Part shown: in pieces, positions 5,251 through 45,828 of the stretch
Layout of the letters: every line of letters starts with the position of its first letter
How positions within the stretch are numbered: the first letter of the stretch is position 1
Origin: an uncultured cyanobacterium
GTDB taxonomy: Bacteria; Cyanobacteriota; Cyanobacteriia; Cyanobacteriales; CAWUOF01
Assembly: GCA_963744145.1 (NCBI GenBank)
Contig: CAVUSO010000001.1
Span: 2,304,001-2,368,000, forward strand
Length of the DNA stretch: 64,000 nt
Reading direction: 5' to 3'
The notes under the pieces: generated by a model
Databases searched by the model: none
What the model was told of the DNA's origin: nothing
What the model saw: only the letters and a program-made list of their open reading frames with translations
Program-made: the position numbers and the translations under genes

Positions 5251-5752
5251 CAAAGCATTGTAGATAAGCTAATTTCAAAATTTTCAAAGGGAAATAATAT
5301 TGATATAATAACAGAAACAATTCATGGCTTACAAGGGGATGAGTGTGATATGATTATCAATTTGCTGAATCCTCCTCCTTATATTGGTGAAAATGAAAAT
5401 ATTTTTCTCAACAAAAAAAACATCCTTAATGTATCTATTAGTAGGGCTAAAGATTATCTAATTTTATTACTTCCTTACGATGATACTAGACATATAGCAA
5501 CTCAAAAGCTTTTTCACATTGAAAAAATTAAAGACCTGATTTTTAAACATAGCAGTATAGCTCATAACTGCCAACAATTTTCTAGTGATGAAATAGAAAC
5601 AATAATTTTTGAAAAAAAGGGAATGATTGAAGAATTTTCATTTCCTACAAGTCATCAGAGCGTCAATGTATATGCGAATCCTGATAAAAAATATGAAATT
5701 AGATATGATGAGAATGCTATTGATATACAACTTAGATTAGGTCCTTAGTCTA

Positions 5753-13483: not shown

Positions 13484-13748
13484 TTTTTATGCTACCTTTT
13501 AATCCATATTTTTTTATTATACGTCAAAAATAACGTAGATAGTAGGGGCGTTGCTGACAAATTATAACAACAAAAATGCGATCGAGTGAATAATTCAGTT
13601 AAGCGTAGTGTGCGAGTCAGAAACTGGGATTGTAGACTATATATTGAGGTAGATTTAAAGAGCAACATTGGAGATAAATGGGATAACATCGCTACTACTA
13701 GATTTGTTAGACGAGGTTGGCGGTTTTAGGATCATATTGAGGGTAGCA

Positions 13749-15887: not shown

Positions 15888-15890
15888 AGC

Positions 15891-18242: not shown

Positions 18243-18260
18243 TTATACCTCTGACTATCA

Positions 18261-19910: not shown

Positions 19911-22900
19911 ATCCTTCCTCACTGCGACAGAGATCAATAAAAGCTTTTAGTATCTTAGACCAGGGTGTACCATCGGAGCGCATTCCCGCAACACAGGTAG
20001 CATCTCCTACTCCAATTAAAACACATCGAGCGCGGCTAAATGCAACACAAAGCCGATTGGGTAATGCGGTAAACCCAAGACGCTGTTCAATTGATGAGTT
20101 CTGATTACTACGAACTGTGGAGAGATATACTATATCATACTCGCGTCCCTGAAAAGCATCAACAGTACCAACACGCACCCGCTCTTGGAGATGCTCAGGT
20201 AAACCGTTACGCTGATCTGCGATCGCATCTTTAAGTGCTTCTTCTTGAGCAGAGTAAAATGCAATCACTCCCACCATTCCAGTAGGTTGATTTGGATCAA
20301 AATTAGGATATTTTTCCTCAATTCGTGGTAAAATACGGCGCAGTTCAGCCATAATCCGAATAACTTCAGCAGGTCTTTCCCAGCTCGATTTACCAGACCG
20401 CTTTTCACCTCCTTGATGATCTGGGATATTCAACCAAACTACAGGTTTTTGATTGTACTCTCCTGTGTAATTCGGTCGTGCTTCTGGTTTGACAAAATTG
20501 GAATTAAGGGGGCTTTCCGGATAAAAATAATCACTAATAAATTTACCAATTGTTGGGTGCATCCGAAACTGATCTGTCAATTGAGCAGTCCGTTCAATCC
20601 CATCTATTGCTGTTTGTTGAGGCAGAGATGCCCAGAGTCTTTCAAATAAACTCTTTCCATAAACTTCTCTTAGCTTTTCATCACCTTCTTTGGCTAAACT
20701 CTGCGCTATTTCTCGCTCCAAAACATGGGGAAGTTGTTTGTGATCACCAACTAAGATAATTCTTCGTCCTTTCACCATTGGTATTAGTAAATCTAGTGGG
20801 TTTGCTCTTGCTGCTTCATCTACTATCACTAGGGTAAATGTTCGATCATTCATTCCTAGGTGCTTCGAGTCTGCTTGTCCACAACTAGCAGCTTGAACTG
20901 GTGAATATTTCCGAATAACTTCTCTAACGTGATTGGGGGATTCCTCTAAATCTCGCACAAATAGTTCAAGGGTATCTTGTACCCCTTCCTCACTTTTAAC
21001 GCGAACTGCTTCGACTTCCTCAATAGCAGCTAGGAGACATCGTTCTATTTTCTCATCAGAAACATCCTGTTCAGCAATGGCTTGGGTAATAGGAATCTCT
21101 AGCAATTGTTGGCGAATACCAATACAGGCATTTTTCAAAGAAAGCCAAGGTTCTAGATTAACTGTATTTTCTTCACTCCACAATATCGCGACTTCCACAG
21201 CTTCAATAATATCATGAGAAAGATGATCTAAATAAGGATCTAAAAAACGTCGCAGCCTTCGAGCTTGCCGATTTCCATCCTCTTTGAAACTTTCTGCTGT
21301 AATACATTGCTGATTGAGTCGTCGCTCCAGTTCATCTCGATCATCAGCATCTTCAATTATTGGCTGATTTTGCGCTTGAATGACTGGAACAGTACCTGCA
21401 AGATGATCGATTTCAGCAACTCGTTGAGCAGATAAAAAGGTTTCTGCTACATTACGAAAATCTAAAAGGATTTCACGAGTTCCTTCACGTCCACCTGCTG
21501 AGGTGCGCCAATGGGAAAGATAACCTTTGAGTTTGTCAATTAACACCAGAGTTGGAGATGGTTCGGTAGAGAGGTGAGAACGAACTACTTGAATAACTTG
21601 GTTTCTCCAAGTTTGAATGGTTTCAGCACCTCGATCTTCCCCTTTTTTGCCTCCTAATCTATCTACCGGAAGTCCACCAATACTCATACTAGCGATCGCA
21701 TTATCTACTGCTTCATGCTGAAGACTTGTTACCAAAACAGTTTCCAACACTTCACCTGGATCTCGTCCATCATTAAGCATCATCAGCAGTGCTTGAATTA
21801 CTCTGGTCTTTCCCGTTCCCGGAGGTCCCTGAATCAGCGCAATATCCGGTGTACTCAGTGCAATTCTCAGCGCTTTTTCCTGAGCAGGTGTTGGTCCATT
21901 TTCACCAAAAATCTTGCGTGCAGTTTTAGTTAGTAGTTGCTTTTTCCGGGGAGGAATTACTCTATCAAAGGATTTACCTTCTAGAATTAAACCCAAATAA
22001 GGAAGACCAGAACGTGCCGATTCTAAAGTAGTTAGTGCTTTTTCACGTCTTTGAATTCGAGATTTTTCCAGACCCATTGAGGGATAGATTTCCCCATCTT
22101 TGTTAGGATATTCCTGCTGACCTTCCCAAACCAAAGTTAGGCAATGGGTATTAAGATTGTATCCTGATACTGATCCTTCAGGCATACCGATGTTATCTTG
22201 AATGGTTACAGGGATACCATCTCCTGAAATATGTTTAAGCCAAGGTGTTATGTTGGCAGATGGTTTTAAATAAAAATTTAGTAAATTTCTATTACCATCG
22301 TTAGAAATAAGACTTTGTATTCCGTTGTATGGTAAAGGAGATAGCAGCCCAAAACGCTCTTCTAAAATTCGATTTTCTTCAGCATTATACTCTTTCCAAC
22401 TCGCAATCCAACTATTATTTTCCTGAACAGCTTTGCTCAATGCTGAAATAGCCGCCGATCGCATTGTGCTAGCAACGGTTTGATCACAAAACTCTAATGA
22501 TTCCCGCATCAAATAAATAGAGCGATCGCTCAAGTTACGCCCTAGTCGCTTCATAGCTTCTGCTACAATCTGCCCGTCTTTTTGGGGAACTAAATTGAGT
22601 GACCAAGACTTTCCTAACACAGAAAATCCCTTCTGAAAATCTGGATCTTTGACCCCTGATGTTACAAACCAATAACCTAAGTGATTAAGTATAAATTCTT
22701 CTTTTAATTGGCGTTTAGCATCTTGAAAGTTTTTGACTTTACGCCAATTCTTACTAACAACTGTTTCAATAAACTCGTCAGTGATAGCAACTTCTAATTG
22801 AACTGGGATTTCGGAATTAGGTACATTAAAAGAACGCCCATCAATTTCAATTGTATTGTCTGTCGCTTTCATAATGCAACCTACAATTAAAGTGTGCCCT

Positions 22901-23124
22901 GATTGCAGTTCTGCCAACAGTATTTTAGCATCAGGTGAATCTGGTTTAATTTCAATGATTGTCTCATCATCCCTACCGTTAGGAATTTGAAAGCATAGAG
23001 TGTTTTCATCAATTCGCTTTAATTCAACAATCTTATCCTCCCAATTATCATTATTTCTTAGGTTGAAGCTATGTAAAAAATGCCCACCTACTTGTTTGCC
23101 AAATTTGAGGTCAAATAATTTCAT
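19897..23124 (-). CDS. SF1B Upf1/DNA2-like helicase (CnuH-like)
   Basis: QGPPGTGKT, VDEAARA, GDHKQLP, QFRMHP, TVDAFQGRE, VAFSRAR. Confidence 0.92.
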   Translation of the reverse strand: MKLFDLKFGKQVGGHFLHSFNLRNNDNWEDKIVELKRIDENTLCFQIPNGRDDETIIEIKPDSPDAKILLAELQSGHTLIVGCIMKATDNTIEIDGRSFNVPNSEIPVQLEVAITDEFIETVVSKNWRKVKNFQDAKRQLKEEFILNHLGYWFVTSGVKDPDFQKGFSVLGKSWSLNLVPQKDGQIVAEAMKRLGRNLSDRSIYLMRESLEFCDQTVASTMRSAAISALSKAVQENNSWIASWKEYNAEENRILEERFGLLSPLPYNGIQSLISNDGNRNLLNFYLKPSANITPWLKHISGDGIPVTIQDNIGMPEGSVSGYNLNTHCLTLVWEGQQEYPNKDGEIYPSMGLEKSRIQRREKALTTLESARSGLPYLGLILEGKSFDRVIPPRKKQLLTKTARKIFGENGPTPAQEKALRIALSTPDIALIQGPPGTGKTRVIQALLMMLNDGRDPGEVLETVLVTSLQHEAVDNAIASMSIGGLPVDRLGGKKGEDRGAETIQTWRNQVIQVVRSHLSTEPSPTLVLIDKLKGYLSHWRTSAGGREGTREILLDFRNVAETFLSAQRVAEIDHLAGTVPVIQAQNQPIIEDADDRDELERRLNQQCITAESFKEDGNRQARRLRRFLDPYLDHLSHDIIEAVEVAILWSEENTVNLEPWLSLKNACIGIRQQLLEIPITQAIAEQDVSDEKIERCLLAAIEEVEAVRVKSEEGVQDTLELFVRDLEESPNHVREVIRKYSPVQAASCGQADSKHLGMNDRTFTLVIVDEAARANPLDLLIPMVKGRRIILVGDHKQLPHVLEREIAQSLAKEGDEKLREVYGKSLFERLWASLPQQTAIDGIERTAQLTDQFRMHPTIGKFISDYFYPESPLNSNFVKPEARPNYTGEYNQKPVVWLNIPDHQGGEKRSGKSSWERPAEVIRIMAELRRILPRIEEKYPNFDPNQPTGMVGVIAFYSAQEEALKDAIADQRNGLPEHLQERVRVGTVDAFQGREYDIVYLSTVRSNQNSSIEQRLGFTALPNRLCVAFSRARCVLIGVGDATCVAGMRSDGTPWSKILKAFIDLCRSEEGYADI

Positions 23125-24512
23125 AATTGATCTACCATAGATTGATTACGCACCTTTGCTCTAATTCCTGAAGGGAAGACAATCAATATTTTATCAAATA
23201 GCCAGACAAATTCACCTGGAGCGCAAGTTCGTTGATGATTTCTAACATCTTTAGTATCCCAAGTATCTTGGCTTAAGTTCTTAAGGCAATAAATTTTATC
23301 ATTGCTACTATTGCGTTGAAACCCAAACTGTGCTAATGTGCCGATTACTTCTGAATTTTCACTGATCAGACGCAAGGGAATAATTCGCTGTTCTTTGTCC
23401 AATACAAACCGATAGGATTTTTTAACTCTTTTAAGTTCCTTTATTTCGTTTTCATCCAAGTTATCAATAGGTGGATCGGAATCAAAGAAACCAAGTTCAA
23501 TCGGGCGATCGCTTGTTTGACCACACCAATCACAAACCAGTGAGGCTCCTCGGATATCTGGTAAATAGGAAGTAGCACCACATGGGCACAATGCTGTTTG
23601 ATCGGCAGCTTCTTCTAATGCACATAACCATTCTTCTGAAGAAGGTCGTACCCAAGGATCTAATATACCCGGTTCAAATGCTTGTCTACAAAGTTCTTGT
23701 AGTCTCCTAGTTAATACTTTTCCCCTTGGTAAACCATAGCTAGAGTAATTTTGCTTGTTCTCTTTTGAATCAATAAATGGTAACTCTCCTTGTAGAGCAA
23801 TCTCCTCCATTTCTGGCTCACCATCGATTACTTGATCACCAAAAAAGGGATGATTTAGCACTAATAAGTAAAAAATTGCTACTGCTAAAGACCAGCGATC
23901 GGATGCGTGATTAGGAAAACGAGACTCTTTCAGGATCTCTGGAGCAATAAATTGTTCTGTTCCAATCACTTCTGCTAAAGATGTTCCTGGAATAATTAAG
24001 TTATCAGGATCGATGAGTTTAATAGATGTTTGTTTGCGATCTGATGGGACAAGGACGTTTTCCCAGGATAAATCCACATAACATAATCCATTACGGTGAA
24101 TTTGCTCAAAGGTTCTAGCTAACTCGGCACAAATTCTTAAACGACGACGTAACCCACCTGTGGAAATGTGCCAGTTGGGATCGCGATCGCGTGGACAAAC
24201 TAACTCAGATAAGGGTATAGAATCTTTAACTCGATCCATTACATAGCCTAAATGTGGCTGATCTAAAACAGCGATCGGCAATACTAATGAGTCGATCTTC
24301 AAGTTTCGTCTTGTCAGCAAGCGAAGTTGCTTGCGAGCATCATCAGTATGTCTAGAGTTGGGTGGTAGACAAACTTTTACTAAAATATTAGCATCCTCAG
24401 TAGTAAATACAATTCCTTGTCTACCCTGATTTAGCTGTTCAACTAGCCTGTAGCGTCTTCCCTCTAAATCTCGAACAATTTCACCTGGTATTGGCAAAGA
24501 GAATTTAGTCAT
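23121..24512 (-). CDS. TerY-associated Ser/Thr protein kinase with Zn ribbon and an FHA-like C-terminus
   Basis: GRQGIVF, YVDLSWENVL, IDPDNL, GTEQFIAPE, DRWSLAV, HPFFG; CPCG and CDWCG. Confidence 0.88.
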   Translation of the reverse strand: MTKFSLPIPGEIVRDLEGRRYRLVEQLNQGRQGIVFTTEDANILVKVCLPPNSRHTDDARKQLRLLTRRNLKIDSLVLPIAVLDQPHLGYVMDRVKDSIPLSELVCPRDRDPNWHISTGGLRRRLRICAELARTFEQIHRNGLCYVDLSWENVLVPSDRKQTSIKLIDPDNLIIPGTSLAEVIGTEQFIAPEILKESRFPNHASDRWSLAVAIFYLLVLNHPFFGDQVIDGEPEMEEIALQGELPFIDSKENKQNYSSYGLPRGKVLTRRLQELCRQAFEPGILDPWVRPSSEEWLCALEEAADQTALCPCGATSYLPDIRGASLVCDWCGQTSDRPIELGFFDSDPPIDNLDENEIKELKRVKKSYRFVLDKEQRIIPLRLISENSEVIGTLAQFGFQRNSSNDKIYCLKNLSQDTWDTKDVRNHQRTCAPGEFVWLFDKILIVFPSGIRAKVRNQSMVDQL

Positions 24513-24526
24513 GTTTAATCTTTTAC

Positions 24527-25186
24527 TTAAAACTCCAGATCATCATCATTAAGCAAGTGAAATGGTAAATTACTGGATGAGTTAGGATTTTTAGCAGTTG
24601 AACGGGCCATAACTGACATAGTAACAAATCGAAAGAAGTCCATTAGTTTGACAACTTCTGTCGCACGCACAACTGGAATTTCTGAATGATTAACGAAACG
24701 TTTAAGGACATCAAAATCGCAATCATTTCCAATCCCAACAGCTAAACGAACTGCTCGTCCTCCTCGGTCGGAATCTAACAATTCTTGAAGCGGTTCTTCC
24801 CAATCATCATTGGGCTGACCGTCACTAACCAAAACGATACTAGGTAGATAAGAGCGTTTCGGGATCTGTTGTTCATCTTTCAACAACTGGAGAGCTATTT
24901 TAAATGCTGCTCCCATCGCTGTAGTACCCCTAGCAACCAAAGTAGGTAAATGAACGTTTTCGATCGGAGTCAAAGGAAGAAGTAGCTGAGCATTACTGTC
25001 AAATGTGATAATGCTAGTATGCAGATGACTGCGAGGATCATGTACATCTTTGAATTTTTGGTGCATTTCCGTCAGTGCAGCGTTAAGAGTATCAATTTTC
25101 TCGCCCTCCATACTGGTACTGACATCTGCTAGTACAATAACTGGTAGTGGTCGTCTCTGGGGCAGAAAGTCATTAAGGTCTTGCAT
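24527..25186 (-). CDS. TerY-like vWA domain protein
   Basis: RRPLPVIVLADVSTSM (MIDAS), GTTAMGAA, LVSDGQPND. Confidence 0.9.
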   Translation of the reverse strand: MQDLNDFLPQRRPLPVIVLADVSTSMEGEKIDTLNAALTEMHQKFKDVHDPRSHLHTSIITFDSNAQLLLPLTPIENVHLPTLVARGTTAMGAAFKIALQLLKDEQQIPKRSYLPSIVLVSDGQPNDDWEEPLQELLDSDRGGRAVRLAVGIGNDCDFDVLKRFVNHSEIPVVRATEVVKLMDFFRFVTMSVMARSTAKNPNSSSNLPFHLLNDDDLEF

Positions 25187-25296
25187 ACATTTGTTAATCA
25201 GACTTTGTGAGCAGCTATGGCATTGCAGTTCATATAGACTACAAAAATGGGATCATATTTTCTATTTTATAGTTCCCATTAGTTCTTGCAAAATCA

Positions 25297-25917
25297 CTAT
25301 GTTTTAGGTTCAATAATTTTGACTAAAATTCGCAAAAGGTCTTCTAGATCAGCAGGAACACGATAGAGATCGAGGTTTTGAGTTACTTGACGAGATTGTC
25401 GATCAAACTGACCAAATTGCCAAATATTCCCAGTTGAAATTGCACCTGGTAAGATCGGTTGTTCAGAATCTATCCATTGATCGAGGGCAATTAATTCAAT
25501 AGCTAGCTGCACAAAACCACGTTCTAGGTCTTCATTTTTGGCTTCAATTACGAGAAAAGTTTGGTGATTTTGGAGGAGATAGTCTAGGGAACCTTTGAGT
25601 TGATTACTAACAGCAATAGGATATTCGACGTTAAGAGTAGCTTGGGTATAGTGCAACAGATCAGTTAACACTGGAGCAATCAGAAATTCTCGTCTTGCTA
25701 TTTCACTGGTGAGACTAAGACGAGGTAGACTTTCTTCAATTCTAGCTTTAAGATCAGTAAGGCGATCGAGGGTGCCCATATATTTAGGCAGATTTAAGGA
25801 GCAACGTTGGAGAGAAACGTTAAAATATGCTAGAATATCTTGCGGTGCAAAGTTGAGTTTAAAGTAGTCAGCAAAAGTGTAAGACTGATCAGGTTGAATA
25901 ATCTTCGTTCTAAGCAT
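25297..25917 (-). CDS. Conserved cyanobacterial restriction-endonuclease-fold protein
   Basis: SEIARRE, GSLDY, IEAK, STGNIWQF. Confidence 0.65.
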   Translation of the reverse strand: MLRTKIIQPDQSYTFADYFKLNFAPQDILAYFNVSLQRCSLNLPKYMGTLDRLTDLKARIEESLPRLSLTSEIARREFLIAPVLTDLLHYTQATLNVEYPIAVSNQLKGSLDYLLQNHQTFLVIEAKNEDLERGFVQLAIELIALDQWIDSEQPILPGAISTGNIWQFGQFDRQSRQVTQNLDLYRVPADLEDLLRILVKIIEPKT

Positions 25918-32014: not shown

Positions 32015-32110
32015 GACAGACGAGATGTGGACAGACGAGATGTGGACAGACAAGATGTCCGTCCCACTAGAAACAATCACTCTTGTGGGACAGTCATCTT
32101 GACTGTCCTA
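32015..32110. repeat. 15-nt tandem repeat (GACAGACGAGATGTG, about 3 copies) merged with REP-like hairpins
   Basis: Visible directly; GGACAGACAAGATGTCCGTCC and GGACAGTCATCTTGACTGTCC are near-palindromes. Confidence 0.6.
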
Positions 32111-32166
32111 GTTATTTTTGCTTTCTTGTTTAATTTAGATACATTTTAAATATTTATCCCTTTTAT

Positions 32167-32469
32167 TTATAGTAGTTTCATAGCCAGCACTTGCACAACA
32201 GCACTGTGTCCCTGATGAAACAGCCCTTCATGGATTTCTCGCTCAAGTTCTACACTGTGCTTAAATTCTAGTCCTTCTAGTTCCTGCTGAATGGTTGTCA
32301 GATCCATCAGCAAATTGGCATTGGGTGGACCTCCAGTTTTGAATTCCAGTTGACGGGGAGTATATGCTTCTAGCACAAACACACCACCCGATCGCAATCC
32401 AGAAACCACTTGCCGATGGATACTAGCACGGATAGTTGGTGGTAAATGACAAAAAATCGAGACGATCGC
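32167..32469 (-). pseudogene. 3' half of a split class I SAM-dependent methyltransferase
   Basis: AIVSIFCHLPP...GLRSGGVFVLEAYTPRQL; joins in frame with 45539-45828. Confidence 0.9.
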
Positions 32470-32557
32470 TAATAATTTTTAGTTCTACCGCTAATTAAAT
32501 AAGAAGAATTTATCGAAATAGATTAAATTGATTGCCCACTGCATATTAATCAGAATG

Positions 32558-35500
32558 GTTTCAGTCCCGTTGCCAGGATTCATTATTGAGAAAGCAACTT
32601 GACAACCAAGTTGACAAAAACTTTCGCGATAACGTGTTTCAGTCCCGTCGCCGGGATTAAGTATTGAGAAAGTTTTCCTTGAATCAGCAGGGTTTTCTTT
32701 ATTGGAGCCATGTTTCAGTCCCGTCGCCGGGATTAAGTATTGAGAAAGCGTAAGTCCCATCGGGTAACATTAGTCCCTCAAGTTTCAGTCCCGTCGCCGG
32801 GATTAAGTATTGAGAAAGTAAATATTATCTAAATCTTCCTAAATATTCTTTAGTGTTTCAGTCCCGTCGCCGGGATTAAGTATTGAGAAAGCTGCATCTT
32901 TTAATCATGTTTCTAGTCTTTTAGAGTTTCAGTCCCGTCGCCGGGATTAAGTATTGAGAAAGTATCTATATAAACGTAGATGTTATAGTAGGAGATTGTT
33001 TCAGTCCCGTCGCCGGGATTAAGTATTGAGAAAGAAAAAACTAATACATCCAATAGAGCGCCGGCGCAAAGTTTCAGTCCCGTCGCCGGGATTAAGTATT
33101 GAGAAAGCAATGGGAATAAGACAGTCCACACGGTCATGCTAGCTGTTTCAGTCCCGTCGCCGGGATTAAGTATTGAGAAAGCCCCAATAATGGCAATCTC
33201 GCCAATTTGGTTAGTTTCAGTCCCGTTGCCGGGATTAAGTATTGAGAAAGTTGCGGTAGTGAGTGACATACATATCGTTCCAGGTTCTTGTTTCAGTCCC
33301 GTTGCCGGGATTAAGTATTGAGAAAGATCATCATTTTGCAAGTTGCGGTAGTGAGTGACAGTTTCAGTCCCGTTGCCGGGATTAAGTATTGAGAAAGCAA
33401 CCTTCAGCGAAACTTTTAAAACCCCAACCTTTCGGGTTTCAGTCCCGTTGCCGGGATTAAGTATTGAGAAAGGTGTAGCCGGGACTGGGATGGGCTCTGG
33501 CGTTGTGTTTCAGTCCCGTTGCCGGGATTAAGTATTGAGAAAGAGATAATTCCATTTGATTCTCCTTTCTTGGTGAGTTTGTTTCAGTCCCGTTGCCGGG
33601 ATTAAGTATTGAGAAAGAATTGATTTTGCTAAATATTCCAAAGAAACATCAAAGTTTCAGTCCCGTTGCCGGGATTAAGTATTGAGAAAGAGCAGGTAGC
33701 CGATATTCTTATCCCTGCTCTAGAAAAGTTTCAGTCCCGTTGCCGGGATTAAGTATTGAGAAAGCAGCTTTTTTGGGAGAAACTTTAGGGATAGGGATTT
33801 GTTTCAGTCCCGTTGCCGGGATTAAGTATTGAGAAAGTTTCTCTCCCAGAGAAATCGAGATTAAATTGTGTTCAGAGTTTCAGTCCCGTTGCCGGGATTA
33901 AGTATTGAGAAAGTTTGGGACAAATACGTTTCGAGTCTAAATTTGTCTCAGTTTCAGTCCCGTTGCCGGGATTAAGTATTGAGAAAGATTTGCGTATCCC
34001 GCAATAGTTGAAATTGTGCCTGAAGTTGGTTTCAGTCCCGTTGCCGGGATTAAGTATTGAGAAAGTCGATTCGAGATTTCTTAATCTGATAAATAAAATG
34101 TTTCAGTCCCGTTGCCGGGATTAAGTATTGAGAAAGAAGTTGATTTTGAATAGTTCAGTTTAGGAGGTTCAAGTTTCAGTCCCGTTGCCGGGATTAAGTA
34201 TTGAGAAAGCTATGAGAGTCGCATCAAAATCCCAAAAGTCCTATCAACCGTTTCAGTCCCGTTGCCGGGATTAAGTATTGAGAAAGCCCACAGTTTTATA
34301 TAGGTGAACTATCGGAGAAAAGTTTCAGTCCCGTTGCCGGGATTAAGTATTGAGAAAGATATCAGGTTGTCAATCATCCCGGATGATGTAGAAATGAGTT
34401 TCAGTCCCGTTGCCGGGATTAAGTATTGAGAAAGTAGATGAAATATTTGATGAGTCGGATTTCTCCCCCATGTTTCAGTCCCGTTGCCGGGATTAAGTAT
34501 TGAGAAAGAAGTCGGAGCAGCATTAAATTTCAGAGTAGTTTTGGTTTCAGTCCCGTTGCCGGGATTAAGTATTGAGAAAGGAGGATTAAATTATGAATCT
34601 TCCTTCAATGGAAGTCTTGTTTCAGTCCCGTTGCCGGGATTAAGTATTGAGAAAGCCGGGAGTACGCCTTCAGACCAGAGAACCGTCTTTACCCTGTTTC
34701 AGTCCCGTTGCCGGGATTAAGTATTGAGAAAGACCCAAAATAACATTACACAACAGGACAAAACAATGACGTTTCAGTCCCGTTGCCGGGATTAAGTATT
34801 GAGAAAGCTGCCCAATCAGCAATATTGACTATCACTGGTCTGGCGATGTTTCAGTCCCGTTGCCGGGATTAAGTATTGAGAAAGACCTACCTATGAAATT
34901 AGCACCCTTGCGTCGGGTGCGAGTTTCAGTCCCGTTGCCGGGATTAAGTATTGAGAAAGGGGGAAGTTATGTCCGACATCCCAGGGGGTGGCTTAGTTTC
35001 AGTCCCGTTGCCGGGATTAAGTATTGAGAAAGTCCCCTAAAGAAATATTTTCCCCAAAATCGGATAGTTTCAGTCCCGTTGCCGGGATTAAGTATTGAGA
35101 AAGCAGTAAAGCTGTCCAGACTGGACAGTTTTTTCTCGTTTCAGTCCCGTTGCCGGGATTAAGTATTGAGAAAGAAGTCTTGACCGGACAACAACCATGC
35201 TCCTTGATAGTTTCAGTCCCGTTGCCGGGATTAAGTATTGAGAAAGTTGGAGCTGAACTTTAAAGATTGACTTGGCAGTGATTGTTTCAGTCCCGTTGCC
35301 GGGATTAAGTATTGAGAAAGCGGGGGAAACCATCGGGTCAATTTGTGAATGAATGTTTCAGTCCCGTTGCCGGGATTAAGTATTGAGAAAGCGATGAGAT
35401 TTTCGATGAGTCTGACTTCAGTCCGAGTTTCAGTCCCGTTGCCGGGATTAAGTATTGAGAAAGTCTGCTAATGCCTTGGCTTTTAAAGATTTAATTTCTT

Positions 35501-38500
35501 CTGAAGTTTCAGTCCCGTTGCCGGGATTAAGTATTGAGAAAGCAATATTAGCAGACAAAATTTGCCCCGGACAAATGTTTCAGTCCCGTTGCCGGGATTA
35601 AGTATTGAGAAAGGTTTGGTCGTTTTGCTGTTTCTACATACCAACAGGAGTTTCAGTCCCGTTGCCGGGATTAAGTATTGAGAAAGTCCTTGGTTTGCAG
35701 TCCCCATTCCGGTGTCGGTGTTGTTTCAGTCCCGTTGCCGGGATTAAGTATTGAGAAAGCAATCTTGCTCCTCAGAATTTCTTCTGGGATTTTGATGTTT
35801 CAGTCCCGTTGCCGGGATTAAGTATTGAGAAAGCCGTTAGTTGTTGACGCGAATGAATGTTTGGATTATTGTTTCAGTCCCGTTGCCGGGATTAAGTATT
35901 GAGAAAGCTTAGAGTCAAATCCGGCGTGGGAAAATGTGTAGTTTCAGTCCCGTTGCCGGGATTAAGTATTGAGAAAGTGCCATAATGGACAAGGACTTAT
36001 ATAGATAAGTCCCGTTTCAGTCCCGTTGCCGGGATTAAGTATTGAGAAAGCCTCATTAAATAAAAAGGATTTAAAGAACGAGGGTCGTTTCAGTCCCGTT
36101 GCCGGGATTAAGTATTGAGAAAGCAAGGTAATTCCGGAAATTCCTTTACCCCAAGGATGTTTCAGTCCCGTTGCCGGGATTAAGTATTGAGAAAGCAGCA
36201 GGAGCAACAGCTAAGGCAATTTCATCATAATCAATAGTTTCAGTCCCGTTGCCGGGATTAAGTATTGAGAAAGTGGGTATAATTACTGGAATGGCAGTTC
36301 GTGGAATTTTCAGTTTCAGTCCCGTTGCCGGGATTAAGTATTGAGAAAGTATTCTACATATTAAAGTAGAAGAACCTATACCTATACCCATGTTTCAGTC
36401 CCGTTGCCGGGATTAAGTATTGAGAAAGCGGTCAATATTAATCACACGGGAATTACCATCAATAGTTTCAGTCCCGTTGCCGGGATTAAGTATTGAGAAA
36501 GTGTTGCTGATTCAGAATCAGCAAAACGAGGTTCTTTAAGTTTCAGTCCCGTTGCCGGGATTAAGTATTGAGAAAGAATTTTAATCAGCACAATAACCCC
36601 CAAGTAAAAATGTTTCAGTCCCGTTGCCGGGATTAAGTATTGAGAAAGAGGTCAGCAAGGAACTCGATGAGTTCCTGGTGAAGTTGAATGCTTCTTGTTT
36701 CAGTCCCGTTGCCGGGATTAAGTATTGAGAAAGCTCTCTGGCTAGGGATTAGCTATCGAGCATACTTAGGTTTCAGTCCCGTTGCCGGGATTAAGTATTG
36801 AGAAAGTTGTTTTCAAGTCGTCTTTGTTCTTAGAGCCAAAAACTACAGTTTCAGTCCCGTTGCCGGGATTAAGTATTGAGAAAGAACCAGAAAATTTAAC
36901 CCATCAAGAGCGTAATTAATGTTTCAGTCCCGTTGCCGGGATTAAGTATTGAGAAAGGCGACAAATGTTGGGTTAAATATAGCAGCAGGATAAGTTTCAG
37001 TCCCGTTGCCGGGATTAAGTATTGAGAAAGCTGATCTATGGGTGTATATATTAGATTGTTATGGGTTGTTTCAGTCCCGTTGCCGGGATTAAGTATTGAG
37101 AAAGTTGGTTGAGAATGAATTTTTAAAGGAACAAGTACAGAAATGTTTCAGTCCCGTTGCCGGGATTAAGTATTGAGAAAGCGGTGGACATAACAAGCGG
37201 ATGTATTGGCTAAGTCATTGTTTCAGTCCCGTTGCCGGGATTAAGTATTGAGAAAGTCTGTCGAAAAAGACAAGCACTTCGAGAAATCGAAGTTTCAGTC
37301 CCGTTGCCGGGATTAAGTATTGAGAAAGCCTAAAGTTAATATTATAGAAAGAATCTATAAAACATGTTTCAGTCCCGTTGCCGGGATTAAGTATTGAGAA
37401 AGACGATAAGTAATTGTACAGAATTATTTACAATAATAACATAATGTGTTAAGGTTGAAGAGTTGAAATTTAAATTTAACTAAAAAAATGATATTTCTAC
37501 GAGAAATTAATCCCCTTTCCGTTAAATTACTAAAGCGAATTTATCATCAAAGCCGACATCACCAGGTGCGTCAAAGAGCTCATTGCCTAATCTTAGCAAA
37601 CGACGGTGTAAAAGTCCCAGAGTTGATGAAAATTTTCAACGTCAGCTCTAAAACAATTTATAATTGGTTTGGGCGATGGGAATCATCTAGTATGGTTGGA
37701 TTATATAATCAATCAGGTAGAGGCTCTAAACCAAAATTTAATTCTGAACAAGAAAACCAAATTAAAGAGTGGACAAAATCCGAACCAAGACAATTAAAAC
37801 AAGTGGTAGAAAAAGCCAAAGAAAAATGGGGAATTGAGGCCAGTACAAAAACAATTAAAAGAATTTTGCAAAAATTTAATATGAGCTGGCATCGGATGCG
37901 TAAAGTGGTAGGAGGAGAACCTGTAGCTACCGTATATCAAGAAAAAAAGCGACAACTAGCAGAATATGAACGATTGGATAAGTTAGGTGAAATTGACCTA
38001 TATTACTTAGATGAATCCGGATTCTCTTTAATTCCTTCTGTGCCATACGCTTGGCAAGATATTGGCGAATATTTTGGGATTCCTAGTCAGCAAAGTAAGC
38101 GTTTAAATGTGTTAGGAATCATGAATAAACGGAATAAATTTGAAGCTTATGTTTCTGAAAAAAGTATCACTGGTGATGTAGTTGCGGCTTGTATTGATAC
38201 TTTCTTTCCTACCGTTGATAAACCCGTGGTAATTGTTACAGATCAAGCATCTATTCATACAGGCAATGCGATTTTTGAAAAACTTGAAGAATGGCAAGAG
38301 CGAAAAATTACTATTTTTGAGTTGCCTACTTATTCTCCCCATCTGAACCTAATTGAAATTTTGTGGAGGTTTATTAAGTATGAATGGATTCCGATAGAAG
38401 CTTATAAAGATTGGCCAACTTTCGTTGCAGCCGTTGAAAAGATTTTGAGAGAATTTGGAGAAAAGTATGTAATTAATTTTGTCTGACTACTTAATAAGGT

Positions 38501-41500
38501 CTCATTATCCTATCTCGTAGGATAGTTTCAGTCCCGTTGCCGGGATTAAGTATTGAGAAAGTACTAATCTAATCTCCAATTCTAATCAATATACACTTAG
38601 TTTCAGTCCCGTTGCCGGGATTAAGTATTGAGAAAGTGGATCATCCAGAGACTGATACTTTTGAGAAAACTCTGAAATGTTTCAGTCCCGTTGCCGGGAT
38701 TAAGTATTGAGAAAGTCGGAGTAAATCCGGAGTATACGCCAATGCTGCTCTAGCAAGGTTTCAGTCCCGTTGCCGGGATTAAGTATTGAGAAAGCGGATT
38801 CCCAATGGCAATTATTGAATAGGTAGCGATCGCATGTTTCAGTCCCGTTGCCGGGATTAAGTATTGAGAAAGTCTGCCATATCAATATCATTTAATTGTT
38901 GATTTAATGCGTTTCAGTCCCGTTGCCGGGATTAAGTATTGAGAAAGCTGACTAAAACAACATAAATTTAATCTGCTGTGAGTTTCAGTCCCGTTGCCGG
39001 GATTAAGTATTGAGAAAGCTTGAATTGTCCGATTATGGCAATTCTTATTATTTGCATGTTTCAGTCCCGTTGCCGGGATTAAGTATTGAGAAAGAGGAAT
39101 TAGATAAGGAATTACGCCAATTACGATCAGGTTTCAGTCCCGTTGCCGGGATTAAGTATTGAGAAAGGTCCTTAATAATTTGGTGAGTGCCCATCAACGA
39201 CCCGGTTTCAGTCCCGTTGCCGGGATTAAGTATTGAGAAAGATACTTAATAAGTTTTTCTTATTAAGTAAAAATGCTTAGGTTTCAGTCCCGTTGCCGGG
39301 ATTAAGTATTGAGAAAGGACCAGACCGAATATTACAAAGTTCGGCAAAACTAGCCCAGGTTTCAGTCCCGTTGCCGGGATTAAGTATTGAGAAAGAAATA
39401 TATTGGCTCAAATTATGGAACTACAGAGAGCATGTTTCAGTCCCGTTGCCGGGATTAAGTATTGAGAAAGCCCAATGGGGGTCATCGACGACAGTTGGGG
39501 CAATCGTTTCAGTCCCGTTGCCGGGATTAAGTATTGAGAAAGAACCTAAGAATTTTAATATCTCTCCTTTTACTTCTTTATAATGTTTCAGTCCCGTTGC
39601 CGGGATTAAGTATTGAGAAAGTGGGGAATCTGACCCCCAACTTTTCCAATAATTTCGTTTCAGTCCCGTTGCCGGGATTAAGTATTGAGAAAGAAGTGAA
39701 CTTTAATACTGCTAACGACCCTAGCGCATTGATTGTTTCAGTCCCGTTGCCGGGATTAAGTATTGAGAAAGCTGGGGTGAATAGGTTTAGGAGCGATTGC
39801 AATCATTTGTTTCAGTCCCGTTGCCGGGATTAAGTATTGAGAAAGTTTATCGCTCTAACTTGGGGCAAAGACAGGAGCAGGTTTCAGTCCCGTTGCCGGG
39901 ATTAAGTATTGAGAAAGCTACCTGTAGATCCAACAAAATTAAATTCTTACCTGTTTCAGTCCCGTTGCCGGGATTAAGTATTGAGAAAGAAATTATGGTC
40001 GAATTATTAACGTTTCAGAATTGGTTTCAGTCCCGTTGCCGGGATTAAGTATTGAGAAAGCTAGCGAGGGGTCAGTAACTTTAGCTAGGGTGATTGGGTT
40101 GTTTCAGTCCCGTTGCCGGGATTAAGTATTGAGAAAAGGACTGCATCATTGGACGCTCTGGGGTCTTTTTGCGTCGTTTCAGTCCCGTTGCCGGGATTAA
40201 GTATTGAGAAAGTAGGTTTTCCTCTTTTACTAGGAGTAGAATTTTTCTTGTTTCAGTCCCGTTGCCGGGATTAAGTATTGAGAAAGTGTAATAAAGTTGG
40301 CCAGATTGATTCCAACCTCTAGTCGCGTTTCAGTCCCGTTGCCGGGATTAAGTATTGAGAAAGTTTAAAGGTAATGCTCGCCCCATCCCCCTCGATTGTT
40401 TCAGTCCCGTTGCCGGGATTAAGTATTGAGAAAGCCACTTGAAATAAAAAAATACCCTCCCATATCAAGTTTCAGTCCCGTTGCCGGGATTAAGTATTGA
40501 GAAAGCTAACGTTAATTCATCATTAGTTTGAGTCGGAATAAGTTTCAGTCCCGTTGCCGGGATTAAGTATTGAGAAAGCAACATTTGATTTATCCACTTA
40601 GGGTATCCCTCCTGGAAGTTTCAGTCCCGTTGCCGGGATTAAGTATTGAGAAAGTTTCTTTTATTTCTCCCTTTGGTTGTAATTTCTGAACCAGGTTTCA
40701 GTCCCGTTGCCGGGATTAAGTATTGAGAAAGGTTTCACTTACGAATTCCTAGAAGGAAATGAAAAAGTTTCAGTCCCGTTGCCGGGATTAAGTATTGAGA
40801 AAGAGCTGAGTTTTTCTTATCCAGCACTTTAGCTTTTAGGTTTCAGTCCCGTTGCCGGGATTAAGTATTGAGAAAGTTGCCAAAATTCTAGATGATCTAA
40901 TCTCATAAAATCAGTTTCAGTCCCGTTGCCGGGATTAAGTATTGAGAAAGTATTTCAAAAATCTCGTTCTGATCAGGGTCTACGTGTTTCAGTCCCGTTG
41001 CCGGGATTAAGTATTGAGAAAGTTTATAGTCCACGGGTTAATTAGACCTATTGGGACTATTGTTTTAAGTTTCAGTCCCGTTGCCGGGATTAAGTATTGA
41101 GAAAGACTTGAGGGGCATTCCCATCACTGTATAAATTTTGCCAGTTTCAGTCCCGTTGCCGGGATTAAGTATTGAGAAAGTTAGCTTGAGCTAAATCAGC
41201 TTGACTGCCTCCACCAGGTTTCAGTCCCGTTGCCGGGATTAAGTATTGAGAAAGTGATGTCGTACTAAATAGTCGTTACATCCCGAAGAAGTTTCAGTCC
41301 CGTTGCCGGGATTAAGTATTGAGAAAGTAGTCCCATCTCCTTGTAAAGAGATTTGAGAGATATTTTGTAAGTTTCAGTCCCGTTGCCGGGATTAAGTATT
41401 GAGAAAGTTTGGGAAGTGGTCTTTGATGACAAATCTGTCGTCGTTTCAGTCCCGTTGCCGGGATTAAGTATTGAGAAAGTAGAATCATCAATACAACCAC

Positions 41501-43312
41501 TAACCGTATAGGGAAGTTTCAGTCCCGTTGCCGGGATTAAGTATTGAGAAAGCCTAGCCAAATAAAACAACAGAGGAAAAACATGAAGATAGTTTCAGTC
41601 CCGTTGCCGGGATTAAGTATTGAGAAAGAAGTACTGTTTATAAATTAGACAACACAAAATTAGTGTAGTTTCAGTCCCGTTGCCGGGATTAAGTATTGAG
41701 AAAGCAGCAGGTGTATCCTGTCCCGAGGATGCTTACGAAGTTTCAGTCCCGTTGCCGGGATTAAGTATTGAGAAAGCTGAGAGCGAGTTCTTTTTGGGCA
41801 TAGTCATCCCAGTAGATTTGTTTCAGTCCCGTTGCCGGGATTAAGTATTGAGAAAGCAATAGGGCTGGGGATAATTTGCTTGAGTGTCCATCCCCTAAGT
41901 TTCAGTCCCGTTGCCGGGATTAAGTATTGAGAAAGCTTTTGCGATCGCAGTAGCTAATCCAGCAGCACGTTTCAGTCCCGTTGCCGGGATTAAGTATTGA
42001 GAAAGTTGCTCCATCAGGAACATTACCCCCTGATTGGTATTATTTCCGGTTTCAGTCCCGTTGCCGGGATTAAGTATTGAGAAAGATAGAAGTTTGACTC
42101 GCAAATTTAGGGGTAAAATAAATGTTTCAGTCCCGTTGCCGGGATTAAGTATTGAGAAAGTTGGAAATAATGTCAATCAATTAATATTATTCAATAAGTT
42201 TCAGTCCCGTTGCCGGGATTAAGTATTGAGAAAGATATTACCAGTACAATCACTGGGGTCCAGGCTACCGCAGGTTTCAGTCCCGTTGCCGGGATTAAGT
42301 ATTGAGAAAGCTGAACTAAGGGCTAGATGGGCGGCAGTGATCGCGGAAAAGTTTCAGTCCCGTTGCCGGGATTAAGTATTGAGAAAGTTCTCAACCAAAG
42401 ATCCTGATACAGGCGCCACCCTGAAGTTTCAGTCCCGTTGCCGGGATTAAGTATTGAGAAAGTTACCAGACTCAGACTTCCGTTGATACTCCTAATACGT
42501 TTCAGTCCCGTTGCCGGGATTAAGTATTGAGAAAGTTGTAAAACTCAACCCATTGGGTATATTGGGCATGTTGATTGCCAAAAGTTTCAGTCCCGTTGCC
42601 GGGATTAAGTATTGAGAAAGAATAAATGAGCTATTCTCGCTAGCCCAATTGCATAGACGTTTCAGTCCCGTTGCCGGGATTAAGTATTGAGAAAGAAGTA
42701 TTTTTATAGTTGACGGTGTAGCCATTTACCGTTTCAGTCCCGTTGCCGGGATTAAGTATTGAGAAAGGAGCTGTAACCCTTACGGCTCTAGCTGACAAAG
42801 ATGGCAAGTTTCAGTCCCGTTGCCGGGATTAAGTATTGAGAAAGTCGCTGATGCTAACTACAGCGGAATCAGTGGACTTAACGTTTCAGTCCCGTTGCCG
42901 GGATTAAGTATTGAGAAAGCTAATGCTTCCCTACCTACCTAATGAGACACTAATACTTCCCGTTTCAGTCCCGTTGCCGGGATTAAGTATTGAGAAAGCG
43001 GCAGCGTCTTTCCGGCGAGATTGCGTTCATTCAATCAATGTTTCAGTCCCGTTGCCGGGATTAAGTATTGAGAAAGCAGTAGTATAATCAAATTAAAATT
43101 ATGTCAATCAACAATGGTTTCAGTCCCGTTGCCGGGATTAAGTATTGAGAAAGTTGCTCTGACGTAGAACCCTTAGTCAATGGATTACAAAAATTTAAGT
43201 TTCAGTCCCGTTGCCGGGATTAAGTATTGAGAAAGCGGGTTATCACTGGACGGCTACGCACCTGATTAATTACAGGTTTCAGTCCCGTTGCCGGGATTAA
43301 GTATTGAGAAAG
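32558..43312 (-). CRISPR. Type I-D-like CRISPR array of about 130 repeats (counted by eye), 37-bp repeat CTTTCTCAATACTTAATCCCGGCAACGGGACTGAAAC; no cas genes in the window
   Basis: Identical 37-mers with unique spacers of roughly 33-48 bp. The degenerate terminal repeat at 32558 marks the trailer end. CTTTC...GGGACTGAAAC is the cyanobacterial I-D repeat type. Confidence 0.97.
37409..38491 (+). mobile_element. IS630-family element inserted in a CRISPR spacer, TA duplication; intact 332-aa transposase at 37488-38486
   Basis: Imperfect TIRs AGTAATTGTACAGAATTATTTACA and (reverse complement) AGTAGTCAGACAAAATTAATTACA. TA at 37407-8 and 38492-3. DESGF, DQASIH and YSPHLNLIEILW motifs. Confidence 0.93.
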
Positions 43313-43620
43313 AGCGTGGTCTAGAAGCGTTACTGGGACTAGCTTGAAATAGCAATTTTGGCAGGTCTCCAAAAAAACTTCATTTCAGCGATTGCCCCAA
43401 CTGAAAATTTGCTAGATTTAGACCGGGGTTAGAGCGTAGAACTATTGAATTATCAAGGTTCTAGAGATTTTGGCGGCACCCCCTGGTTTTTCAACCTCGC
43501 TTCGCCTTGCCAAAAAATCTATACAGACACTATATAACACCTTTGCAACTTTGTCACATATTTTAGCACTCAAATTTTGCAGAAAAATAATTCAGGTAAT
43601 TTCTTATGGACAATGGCGAT
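43313..43620 (-). promoter_or_regulatory. CRISPR leader
   Basis: Non-coding region adjoining the non-degenerate end of the array; resembles cyanobacterial I-D leaders (GACCTGCCAAAATTGC...). Confidence 0.7.
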
Positions 43621-43644
43621 CGGATCACCTCTAATCGCTAAATA

Positions 43645-43718
43645 ATACCAGCTTCATAAATTAGCACTACAGATAATATATATAGATCATCTGTAGTCAG
43701 AGTTGGAAGAATTGGTAT
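43645..43718. mobile_element. About 75-bp MITE derived from an IS630 like the one at 5753-6903
   Basis: Left TAATACCAGCTTCATAAATTAGCACTACAGATA resembles the IS630 left end. Right CTGTAGTCAGAGTTGGAAGAATTGGTATAA resembles 6876-6905. Confidence 0.75.
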
Positions 43719-43731
43719 AACTGGAGAAATA

Positions 43732-43760
43732 TTGACAATAAGTACATATTCGGTCATAAT
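43732..43760 (+). promoter_or_regulatory. Sigma70-type promoter of IS607 tnpA
   Basis: TTGACA-17 bp-CATAAT, ending 6 bp before ATG 43767. Confidence 0.6.
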
Positions 43761-43766
43761 ATATCT

Positions 43767-44385
43767 ATGACTAAATATGTAACGCCAAATGAAGCAGCTA
43801 ACACTCTCTTGAGTTTGTCTCAGAACCCTTAGAAGATGGGAAGTCGAGGGAAAAATCAATACCGTCAAAACACCCTGTGGTCACAGAAGGTACGACATCG
43901 AAGGGTTCATCAAAAAAGAATCAGCACCAGAAAGTGGACGCGCCACTGTTATCTATGCTCGCGTCTCTACCAGACCTCAACAAGCAGACCTTATGCGACA
44001 AATTGAGCGATTATCAACGCTCTATCCAGGCGCTGAAGTCGTTCAGGAAGTGGGAGGAGGACTTAATCTTAGGCGGAAAGGACTCATCACCCTTTTGGGA
44101 CGAGTTTTGCGTGGCGATATCGCAGTTATTGTGGTTGCCCACAAAGATCGACTCGCCCGATTCGGATTTGATCTTATCGAGTGGTTGTGTGAACAATTTG
44201 ACTGCCAAATCGTGGTTCTCAACCAAGTCAGTCTCTCTCCTCACGCCGAACTCGTTCAAGATATCATCGCAATCCTCCACAGCTTTTCAAGCCGACTTTA
44301 TTCCCTCCGCCGACTTGAAAACCAAATCAAAGAAGAGTTACAAACTGAAACCAAGGCACCAGAAAAACCCGTTAAAACAGCCTAA
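43767..44385 (+). pseudogene. tnpA: IS607-family serine recombinase TnpA (+1 frameshift near 43808)
   Basis: MTKYVTPNEAA, then in the +1 frame RTLRRWE...GHRRY...IYARVST...EVGGGLN...HKDRLARFGFD...FSSRLYS. Confidence 0.9.
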
Positions 44386-45530
44386 TAAAACTCTGAAAAT
44401 TCGGGTATATCCTGAACCTGCACTGCATCAAAAATGGAAGTCTTGGTTAGCGGCATCTCGTCACTGTTATAACCAAGCGATCGCTGCATTGAAATCAGGT
44501 AAAGAAATAACCAGTGCTTATTCACTGCGGAATTATGTGTTCAGTTTGGACTTACCTGATTGGGTAAAATCTGCCCCAGCACATCCAAAAGAGAATGCAA
44601 TTTTTGATGCTTGGGATGCAAGTAAACAAGCTCAGTCGCAAGGAGGTGAAGCAAGTTTCAGAAATTGTAGACAACCAGTCCAGGCGATTAAGTTTCATCA
44701 AGTTAACTTTAACGGGAAAACTTGGTTTCCTTCTCTGGTTAAAGGACTTAGTTTTCAGGCTAGCGAACCATTACAAAAAACTGAATTTGCGACTCAATTA
44801 GTCAGAGATAGAAAGCGGTGGTTTGCTTGTATTCCCATCCAGGCTGAAATTAATGAACCAAAACAATTAGACCAAGTAATTGCTTTAGATCCGGGGGTAA
44901 GAACTTTTCTAACTGGATATGATGGTGATTCATACTTAGAGTTTGGTAAGGCAGACATTGGACGCATTCAAAGATTGTGTTCTCACCTTGACCAACTCAT
45001 AGGACGCGCCTCGAAATCTGGTCGAAAACAAAAACGTCGGATGTACCAAGCCGCGAATCGTTTACGCATTAGAATTCGCAATTTGGTAGATGAATGTCAT
45101 AAACAAGTTGCTAATTACCTGACAACTCAGTACAAGGTGATTTTTCTGCCTAAGTTTGAAACTTCACAAATGGTAATTAAGTCCGGACGTCCGACTTCAT
45201 ACTAAAACAGCGAGACAGATGCTTACTTGGGCGCATTACCGATTTAAGTGTCATCTCAAACAAGTCGCTCAACAGCGTGGTGTTGTCGTCATTGATGTGA
45301 ATGAATCTTACACCTCAAAAACTTGTACTAGCTGCGGATACCAGCACCACCAATTAGGCGGGTCGAAAACGTTTAAATGCCCCCATTGTGGTCATATTCA
45401 TGATCGCGACTGGGGGGGCGCTCGGAACATTATGATCCGGGCTTTGAGGGACGGCTCCTTTGCTTTGGCGATCACGAGCGAAAGCATTGCTGTCGCGTAT
45501 GCTCTATTTGTCCAGAGTTGTACAGCGTAA
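44315..45530 (+). pseudogene. tnpB: IS607 TnpB of pro-Fanzor type (+1 frameshift near 45190; start uncertain)
   Basis: KIRVYP, ALDPGVRTF, IFLPKFET (shifted Glu), MLTWAHYRFK, ESYTSKTCTSCG, CPHCG, DRDWGGARNI. Confidence 0.88.
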
Positions 45531-45538
45531 TACCGTCA

Positions 45539-45828
45539 GCATCCCAAGAATTGGGTTGAATGACAAATTCAGCCAGATCTGCCACAATCGTTTCTATCTC
45601 CACAGAACGCTCTGCTGCTAGTTTGCGAGCTTTCTCCAAGCCTATAGAAGAACCATCGACAGCCGTAACCTGACATCCTTGCTGTGCTAGATATACAGCA
45701 TTCCTACCTTCTCCTTCGGCTAGAGAAAGAACATGACCTTTGGGAATCTGTTGGATGACTTGGACTAAAAAGTCGTTGGGATGCTTACCATAGGCATACT
45801 CAGTCTGGCTATATCGTTCATTCCACAT
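45539..45828 (-). pseudogene. 5' half of the split SAM-dependent methyltransferase
   Basis: MWNERY...PNDFL...LAEGEGRNAVYLA...WDA; homology ends at the IS607 right end. Confidence 0.9.

Follow-up and report, generated by a model that had tools for sequence, protein, structure and literature searches.

An IS607-family element with a HIP1-core target and a probably captured orphan type I-D CRISPR array inside a split cyanobacterial methyltransferase gene

The insertion sequences (ISs) IS607, IS1535 and CboIStron have in common a serine transposase with an N-terminal helix-turn-helix (HTH) domain, a tnpB gene behind it, a 2-bp core, short subterminal direct repeats some 20-60 bp inside the ends, and neither terminal inverted repeats nor target duplication. 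The characterised elements insert at GG and need little else ((G)GG, TGGG; PMC6188088, PMC13565253). Here we describe a relative in a 64,000-nucleotide stretch of contig CAVUSO010000001.1 from an uncultured cyanobacterium (positions 2,304,001 to 2,368,000, forward strand; hereafter the window), which holds an IS607-type tnpA-tnpB pair and a 130-repeat CRISPR array with a leader at its right end. We consider it probable that this locus is an IS607-family element which targets the core of HIP1, the most common palindrome in cyanobacterial DNA, and which, inside a split methyltransferase gene, carries a captured orphan type I-D array. As far as its target is concerned, the clade of the window element departs from the characterised IS607 elements in using CGATC/GC (the slash marks the crossover), part of a 6-8 bp host palindrome, and the locus departs from them in that 11 kb of array separates the left half of the target from the element's left end.

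Orphan I-D arrays have been described in filamentous cyanobacteria (10.1101/2020.04.14.041012), and they resemble the present one in being free of cas genes and in sharing repeat and leader with a cas-linked I-D locus elsewhere. That report leaves the genetic mechanism of array fragmentation open, whereas here the junctions of one move are readable to the base. Precise rearrangements at GCGATCGC, the HIP1 sequence, are likewise on record in the smtB deletion and the SDR5 insertion (cited in PMC13756078, PMC5861425 and PMC4390886); SDR5, a 21-nt repeat, lies between HIP1 bases 3 and 4 and has no known enzyme, whereas our locus is cut at the final two HIP1 bases and includes a transposase. The Tn7-like transposons that target cyanobacterial CRISPR arrays (10.1101/2024.10.13.618069) are also physically linked to an array, but they insert into spacers via TnsD, while the window IS lies outside the leader, appears to target HIP1 and has the array as its passenger. 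Finally, the pro-Fanzor TnpBs of cyanobacterial IS607 elements (PMC10711439) share with ours a DPG RuvC-I motif, a glutamate before the zinc finger, an IS607 TnpA partner and a cyanobacterial host; they differ in that no HIP1 target or target-adjacent motif (TAM) was found for them in the accessible text of that paper. Positions below refer to the window unless prefixed with C1, which gives coordinates in the source genome, and L-numbers label related loci.

The interrupted gene lies on the minus strand and encodes a class I S-adenosylmethionine methyltransferase, TehB-like. Its 5′ half (45541..45828; 96 aa; PF13649, PF03848) breaks off after 96 codons at the right end of the IS, and its 3′ half (32167..32469; 100 aa, open, with its own stop) resumes at 32469, 13 kb away; the halves are contiguous in two relatives, L067 (1207-1497, then 1498-1791) and L068, where they join without a gap. 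When the outer and right flanks were joined in a script, the frame was restored, with 79/80 aa open and the L067 match spanning the joint, but joining the inner flank, at the other side of the array block, to the right flank did not restore the methyltransferase frame. Because the gene rejoins only at the outer junction and not at the inner flank, the outer junction is real. On the plus strand it comprises CGATCG at 32463-32468 with the crossover core GC at 32468-32469, and the reconstructed empty site is ACGATC/GC, which holds 7 of the 8 bases of HIP1. Array, leader and IS607 therefore form a single 13.07-kb insert that splits the methyltransferase gene exactly at ACGATC/GC.

To define the left IS end, 45 loci were collected by TnpB homology; 12 were dropped because their left end could not be recognised or because they were truncated or distant, and 5 were repeats of a site, leaving 28 independent sites, all checked by hand. 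The alignment of other IS607 copies, which the earlier note on this sequence had proposed, yielded a left end elsewhere than the GC/TAA at about 43639 suggested there: at all 28 sites the left end starts 69-71 bases ahead of the tnpA start, which corresponds to GG at 43622-43623 in the window once a 75-base insertion is allowed for. The inner junction is thus the true left boundary of the IS607 (plus strand; flank GCGATC 43616-43621, CGATCG 43617-43622, core GG 43622-43623). The left end and tnpA promoter region follow at 43624..43766 (plus strand), with TGGACA-type repeats at 43722 and 43732. They are interrupted 21 nt inside the left end by a dispersed palindromic repeat resembling a miniature inverted-repeat transposable element (MITE) at 43643..43720, net 75 nt, of which the genome holds dozens of copies; the MITE upstream of tnpA that the note had postulated is real. 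After its removal in the script, the window left end has a profile score of 33 bits. The MITE parts the IS core from its direct repeats, and the left end may be disabled.

The same alignment gives HIP1 as the flanking consensus, and here the note's idea of a HIP1-related target is borne out. CGATCG stands directly before the left end at 25 of the 28 independent sites, and GCGATCG at 18; of the three sites that lack CGATCG, one is out of register by a single base and the other two have a different sequence. The source genome (7.7 Mb), in which HIP1 is the most frequent 8-mer, has a background of one CGATCG per 518 bp (14,860 sites). The genome also has ten non-autonomous elements that carry the same left end from its GG core onward; 7/10 are flanked by CGATCG, and the right core is GC in 10/10. 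A search whose pattern did not include CGATCG gave CGATCG flanks at 7/7 matches (two or three of them previously known); another search, which had CGATCG in its pattern, was excluded as evidence on targeting. In Heteroscytonema crispum seven IS607 copies have identical ends, and their flanks are unrelated right after the core. Rejoined flanks match another gene across the joint at 5 of 26 homologous loci tested, the others giving self matches only or none. These flanks indicate that the IS607 clade inserts at the HIP1 core CGATC/GC. More distant cyanobacterial IS607 relatives, L002 and L013 (~58% TnpA identity), have no HIP1 flank, so the HIP1 preference belongs to the clade of the window element, whose loci come from Nostoc, Microcoleus, Coleofasciculus, Heteroscytonema, Brasilonema, Rhizonema, Tychonema and Leptolyngbyaceae records. 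The inner junction is bridged without difference by a contig of the public run X2, and the right junction by one of run X1; as either run may be the source of the assembly, these contigs do not count as independent.

The starting point of the earlier note had been an eight-letter match, ATCGCTAA, thought to bracket array and leader. Both copies are present on the plus strand, at 32465..32472 and 43634..43641. As a bracket they hold only in part: the outer copy, which consists of five target bases plus the core and then TAA, overlaps the true junction, where the gene is cut at 32468-32469, whereas the inner copy marks no boundary, lying 12-19 bases inside the IS607 left end in an internal, variable part and occurring in the same place at 3/28 homologous sites. 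What brackets the block is the 6-mer CGATCG at 32463-32468 and 43617-43622. Genome-wide there are 1246 copies of the 8-mer, which amounts to one every 12.4 kb on each strand, and the window has six of them; TAA follows CGATCGC at 3.8% of the 21,024 such sites of the source genome; the match is therefore near chance, as the note had itself allowed. It is best regarded as a probable by-product, with ATCGC belonging to the target at the outer copy and, at the inner copy, to a left-end stretch that is internal and variable.

The note had drawn two models from the match, one in which the left end lies at GC/TAA near 43639 and a look-alike at the outer junction was used in its place, the other in which the array entered by 8-bp homology, and in these literal forms both are highly improbable. 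The 8-mer is found at both places, and the likeness runs slightly on with one gap: a looser match, one edit from the 7 bases after the inner GC and chosen post hoc, is met at 1.0% of CGATCGC sites, and two exact forms at 0.14%, so that this looser match may have a small mechanistic role. Short left-end stubs that end at the internal TAATC/GC also exist (C1:2535863, L078 and L085), hinting at a secondary crossover point there, though the search pattern favoured such an ending. Against these points, the left ends at 28/28 homologous sites start 12 bases further out, the ten non-autonomous elements share the left end from the GG core, and the outer look-alike scores no better than 4-5% of ordinary HIP1 sites and has no TGGACA-type repeat. 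Had the crossover taken place within the 8-mer, the outer junction would have the first twelve left-end bases; these stand at the inner junction, so that such a crossover is excluded and the exchange is placed in CGATCG. The two routes behind these models, that the IS carried the array or that the array entered at the left junction of the IS, remain live in their broader form and are weighed below.

By its genes, too, the element belongs with IS607. The tnpA gene (43767..44385, plus strand; Resolvase PF00239) has a frame broken near 43807, and the TnpA of the intact homologue L032 combines an HTH of MerR/HTH_17 type at its N-terminus with the resolvase domain of a serine recombinase. The overlapping tnpB (43789..45530, plus strand; start placed by L032, whose tnpB is a 577-aa open reading frame (ORF) that likewise overlaps tnpA, the IS607 gene order) has frame breaks near 43807 and 45190 in the assembly. 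One contig of run X1 (depth 4.7), a run that may have been used for the assembly, does not have the additional base at 45190, and this break may be an assembly error or recent. There are no terminal inverted repeats and no target duplication, the flanks join up in frame when the core is counted a single time, and TGGACA-type repeats in the left end are paired with TGTCCA-type repeats in the right end. The GG target dinucleotide, a trait of the characterised members that we treat as variable, is not shared, the right-junction core being mostly GC. In its family gene and end features the element thus works as an IS607, and in its target it is an IS607 variant.

The TnpB matches PF07282 and OrfB_IS605, and it appears from its motifs to be of pro-Fanzor type. 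DPG occupies the RuvC-I position in the window ORF 43877-45205 and in L032, and the RuvC-II glutamate is shifted to before the zinc finger, where it aligns with L79, with no glutamate at the canonical position. The best match among solved structures is the TnpB-like protein L79 (9b0l, E 3.7e-21), a Mimivirus Fanzor2; it is ahead by 7 orders of magnitude. No TnpB relatives were found in viral contigs.

The right end (45450..45540, plus strand) folds into a conserved predicted structure, a candidate omegaRNA scaffold, which is closed right before the core GC (45539-45540) by the helix GACGG:CCGUC; this closing helix is invariant and hence lends no covariation support, and the right end matches no Rfam family. 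The predicted TnpB guide would be the right flank from 45540 or 45541. The TnpA target and the TnpB TAM coincide in CboIStron (10.1101/2023.11.20.567912), and since they do, we predict from the flanks that the 5′ TAM here is part of GCGATCG(C). Other TAMs reviewed include a 3-nt G-rich motif for Fanzor2 and AGGAG/GAGGG for most IS607 TnpBs (PMC13565253).

The same left end is found on non-autonomous elements that encode iscB (RRXRR plus HNH) and whose HEARO RNA is read inward from the right end. Five lie in the source genome, at C1:98326, 3812952 and 7021837 on the plus strand and at C1:4139942 and 5666124 on the minus strand, and others at L069-L071, L077, L079, L098 and L102; three or four other genomes have such elements. 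The first helix of the HEARO RNA appears to start at the core, so that the flank would be the guide and HIP1 the 3′ TAM. A flank at L102 that resembles a CRISPR repeat proved to have no array. Protein-free elements of 400-470 bp with the same ends occur at C1:2284094, 3192628, 3491394, 5858527 and 6261466, and L099, in another genome, is a minimal element of ~67 bp with nothing but the two ends. A solo 65-bp left end (C1:1873797-1873858) ends a gene fragment, from its translation presumably NlpC/P60-like, at a non-HIP1 site resembling a right end, and a solo right end (C1:4118904-4118943) lies between two convergent genes.

The passenger of the block is an array of 130 repeats of 37 nt (32558..43312, minus strand), its direction deduced from the leader and the degenerate end. 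Its repeat differs at 2/37 positions from that of a cas-linked array at C1:4.81 Mb (csc2, cas6, cas4, cas1, cas2), and its leader and promoter region (43313..43614, minus strand) is 85% alike the cas-linked leader over 202 nt; repeat and leader also match a third array at C1:0.86 Mb, with 88% likeness to the leader at C1:860 kb. A Pfam scan of 38 window ORFs (most of the 55 ORFs of at least 90 aa) gave no cas family, and with repeat and leader matching a cas-linked I-D locus, this is therefore an orphan type I-D array. Three of its spacers also overlap, in reversed orientation, with spacers found in the cas-linked array, which shows that spacers were acquired in the same lineage. The nine oldest repeats (32558-33181) are variant, one terminal and eight of a second type, followed by 120 of the main type, and they may mark the size of the array at the time of the move. 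One spacer contains an IS630-type element (37407..38493, plus strand; transposase 37488-38486, frame intact) with TA at both ends, a 467-base piece of which is 99.8% identical at C1:7.17 Mb. The array at C1:860293-877174, a second orphan I-D array, has 211-212 repeats, two inserted repeat elements among its oldest spacers, and a degenerate end that enters the last codons of a histidine kinase gene.

How the array came to sit with the IS is not decided by the sequence alone, since CGATCG at both junctions is demanded by IS targeting anyway; for the same reason, the fact that the rejoined block gives a perfect HIP1 was rejected as proof of a circle, the argument being circular. We nevertheless favour, as the probable course, that the IS moved the array with itself by taking the next HIP1 core as a stand-in for its own end. 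The order of events would be as follows. The IS would have inserted at the first HIP1 site past the leader, giving the inner junction GCGATC/GG. Its transposase would then have joined the right end not to its own left end but to the next CGATCG core across the array, forming a circle with array, leader and IS; alternatively, a second element of the family on the trailer side, later excised cleanly, would give the same product via standard steps. The circle would have integrated at ACGATC/GC in the methyltransferase gene, after which the array would have grown on via Cas1-Cas2 supplied in trans from the cas locus and gained the IS630-type element, while the IS would have gained the MITE and its frame would have broken. 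The moved block was possibly smaller than 11 kb at the time. There is no CGATCG between 32463 and 38827, the latter falling after repeat 70, so that the two junctions would be neighbouring cores if the array was shorter then.

In IS607 transposition, which goes via a circle, the left core comes from the donor and the right core from the target (PMC6188088, 10.1101/2023.11.20.567912); in CboIStron the left junction carries the core of the circle and the right junction keeps the G of the target (10.1101/2023.11.20.567912). Among the homologous sites, the left-junction cores are GG at 20 and GC at 7 of 28, and the right-junction cores GC at 22 and GG at 4 of the 26 that are readable, and the prevalence of GG on the left and GC on the right fits this scheme. 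For a circle that carries tnpA and an end, integration would be the step that normally follows, whereas a circle of the array alone would have to meet one of the ~12 left ends of the family among 14,860 CGATCG sites. On the trailer side (32470..32557), 32499-32555 is 82% alike C1:441794-441850, the likeness stopping at the terminal repeat, and a weak, gappy alignment to this paralogue at C1:441.8 kb extends to a CGATCG (p 0.04-0.07).

Several observations weigh against capture by the IS. The core dinucleotides fit the entry of a separate array circle equally well, and the outer CGATCG comes from the target gene and is thus no proof of a HIP1 core at the donor, for which the trailer paralogue is the sole support; a trailer search in 251 genomes for the donor site gave this paralogue only, and neither five sequence handles nor a same-family genome yielded an orthologous intergenic region or a leader. 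Nor was a relative with an intermediate state found among the genomes compared, none of them of the same genus and the sole one of the same family being without the leader. An array was found near none of the 45 related loci (many of whose flanks are short), and capture is therefore one event, not a system. The score of the outer end is that of an ordinary HIP1 site, and TGGACA-type subterminal direct repeats are missing from it. One-ended reactions are not described in the parts of the IS607 literature examined: removal of an end or a core mismatch abolished excision of CboIStron (10.1101/2023.11.20.567912), and synapsis in IS1535 cannot do without the repeats 21-54 bp inside its left end (PMC6188088).

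The circle scheme just mentioned is a possible course to which we give limited credence. In it the IS607 first sat alone in the methyltransferase gene, and a circle of the array, formed between two HIP1 sites, later recombined into the CGATCG at the left junction of the IS, either through the transposase (left end with HIP1) or by a host pathway that depends on HIP1; it amounts to the note's homology model shifted from the 8-mer to CGATCG. It yields exactly the observed junctions and cores. HIP1-bounded deletion and HIP1-linked site-specific recombination have been reported (PMC13756078, PMC4390886), and in IS1535 the left end is the strong transposase-binding end, whose terminal 19 bp matter little (PMC6188088). 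Yet a non-replicating circle would have to form and be captured before it was lost. A host route would have no reason to choose the IS junction, hitting one of ~12 among 14,860 CGATCG sites by chance only, and the transposase route would call for two rare events within the lifetime of the circle. Moreover, the other two I-D arrays of the genome, on inspection, showed no split gene and no clean HIP1 bracket.

If the outer junction were itself an IS end, the block would instead be two-ended. Its left-end score is -8 bits, compared with 33 at the true left end, and 4-5% of ordinary HIP1 sites equal it; a decayed standard left end was rejected on this ground, a place within the top 4-5% of HIP1 sites not being significant. 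The outer 20-22 bases might still represent a variant left end or a footprint, with the block a composite that has moved repeatedly and the solo right end at C1:4118904-4118943 a second copy with an internal deletion, which we think improbable. The case for it is that 32472-32491 matches, at 16/20 bases, the sequence just upstream of that site, the only other TnpB-type right end of the genome, a score reached by 25 of 21,024 CGATCGC sites. The match was found post hoc, however, and a better one (18/20), at C1:4569633, lies in coding sequence, evidence that likeness of this kind comes about readily; the gene, judging by the likeness of its translation, is presumably Uma2-like. A search of 301 genomes revealed no such motif family, the 5 matches outside the source genome all being one variant of the C1:4569633 coding stretch, the DNA upstream of solo right ends in two other genomes is unrelated, and TGGACA-type repeats are missing from the outer end. 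A loose form of the outer-junction pattern gave 44 viral matches.

We return to the favoured reading, an IS607 that probably took the array along. In a composite transposon an IS end stands at both outer boundaries, and here the outer end is without direct repeats; the locus is not a two-IS composite transposon. Nor is it a CRISPR-associated TnpB or type V system, which would show a stable, repeated linkage of nuclease and array: that linkage is seen at 0/45 loci, the array belongs to type I-D, and the TnpB has retained a right end of its own. In the literature searched, which took in few subscription journals and not ISfinder, there was no IS607, TnpB or IscB that targets HIP1 and no IS607 with an array, though supplements of PMC10711439 may list these ends.

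Elsewhere in the window, a co-directional run of genes on the minus strand (9918-25917) encodes VWA, kinase, SF1 helicase, McrB-like AAA_5 ATPase, DUF2357, AAA and AAA-TPR proteins and looks like a defence island. A fragmented helicase gene with an ISAs1-type transposase within it, followed by an IS630 fragment, occupies 35-6438. Left of the methyltransferase 3′ half, 32015-32140 holds a 15-base tandem repeat and a dispersed repeat with more than 100 matches in the genome.

The capture of the array is so far a single event, while HIP1 targeting is a property of the clade. The function of HIP1 is unsettled after three decades, and the locus ties both the palindrome and the origin of orphan arrays to a testable enzyme, giving a base-exact example of how CRISPR arrays may get scattered in cyanobacterial genomes. 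The intact multi-copy members of the clade, such as the seven in Heteroscytonema crispum, make target choice, methylation dependence, cargo capture and the pro-Fanzor TAM directly assayable, and a scarless integrase for a site that occurs every ~0.5-1 kb in these genomes could serve as a tool. A broader proposal, which we regard as speculative and rather unlikely, is that the transposase of the clade is a HIP1-specific recombinase for which any neighbouring HIP1 core can take the place of an end and which can thereby move host segments bounded by HIP1, with TnpB (5′ TAM) and IscB (3′ TAM) reading the same palindrome. If true, it would supply a named enzyme for rearrangements at HIP1 sites and a general route for the spread of orphan arrays in filamentous cyanobacteria, and HIP1, possibly methylated, would be read by TnpB and IscB as a mark of cyanobacterial DNA.

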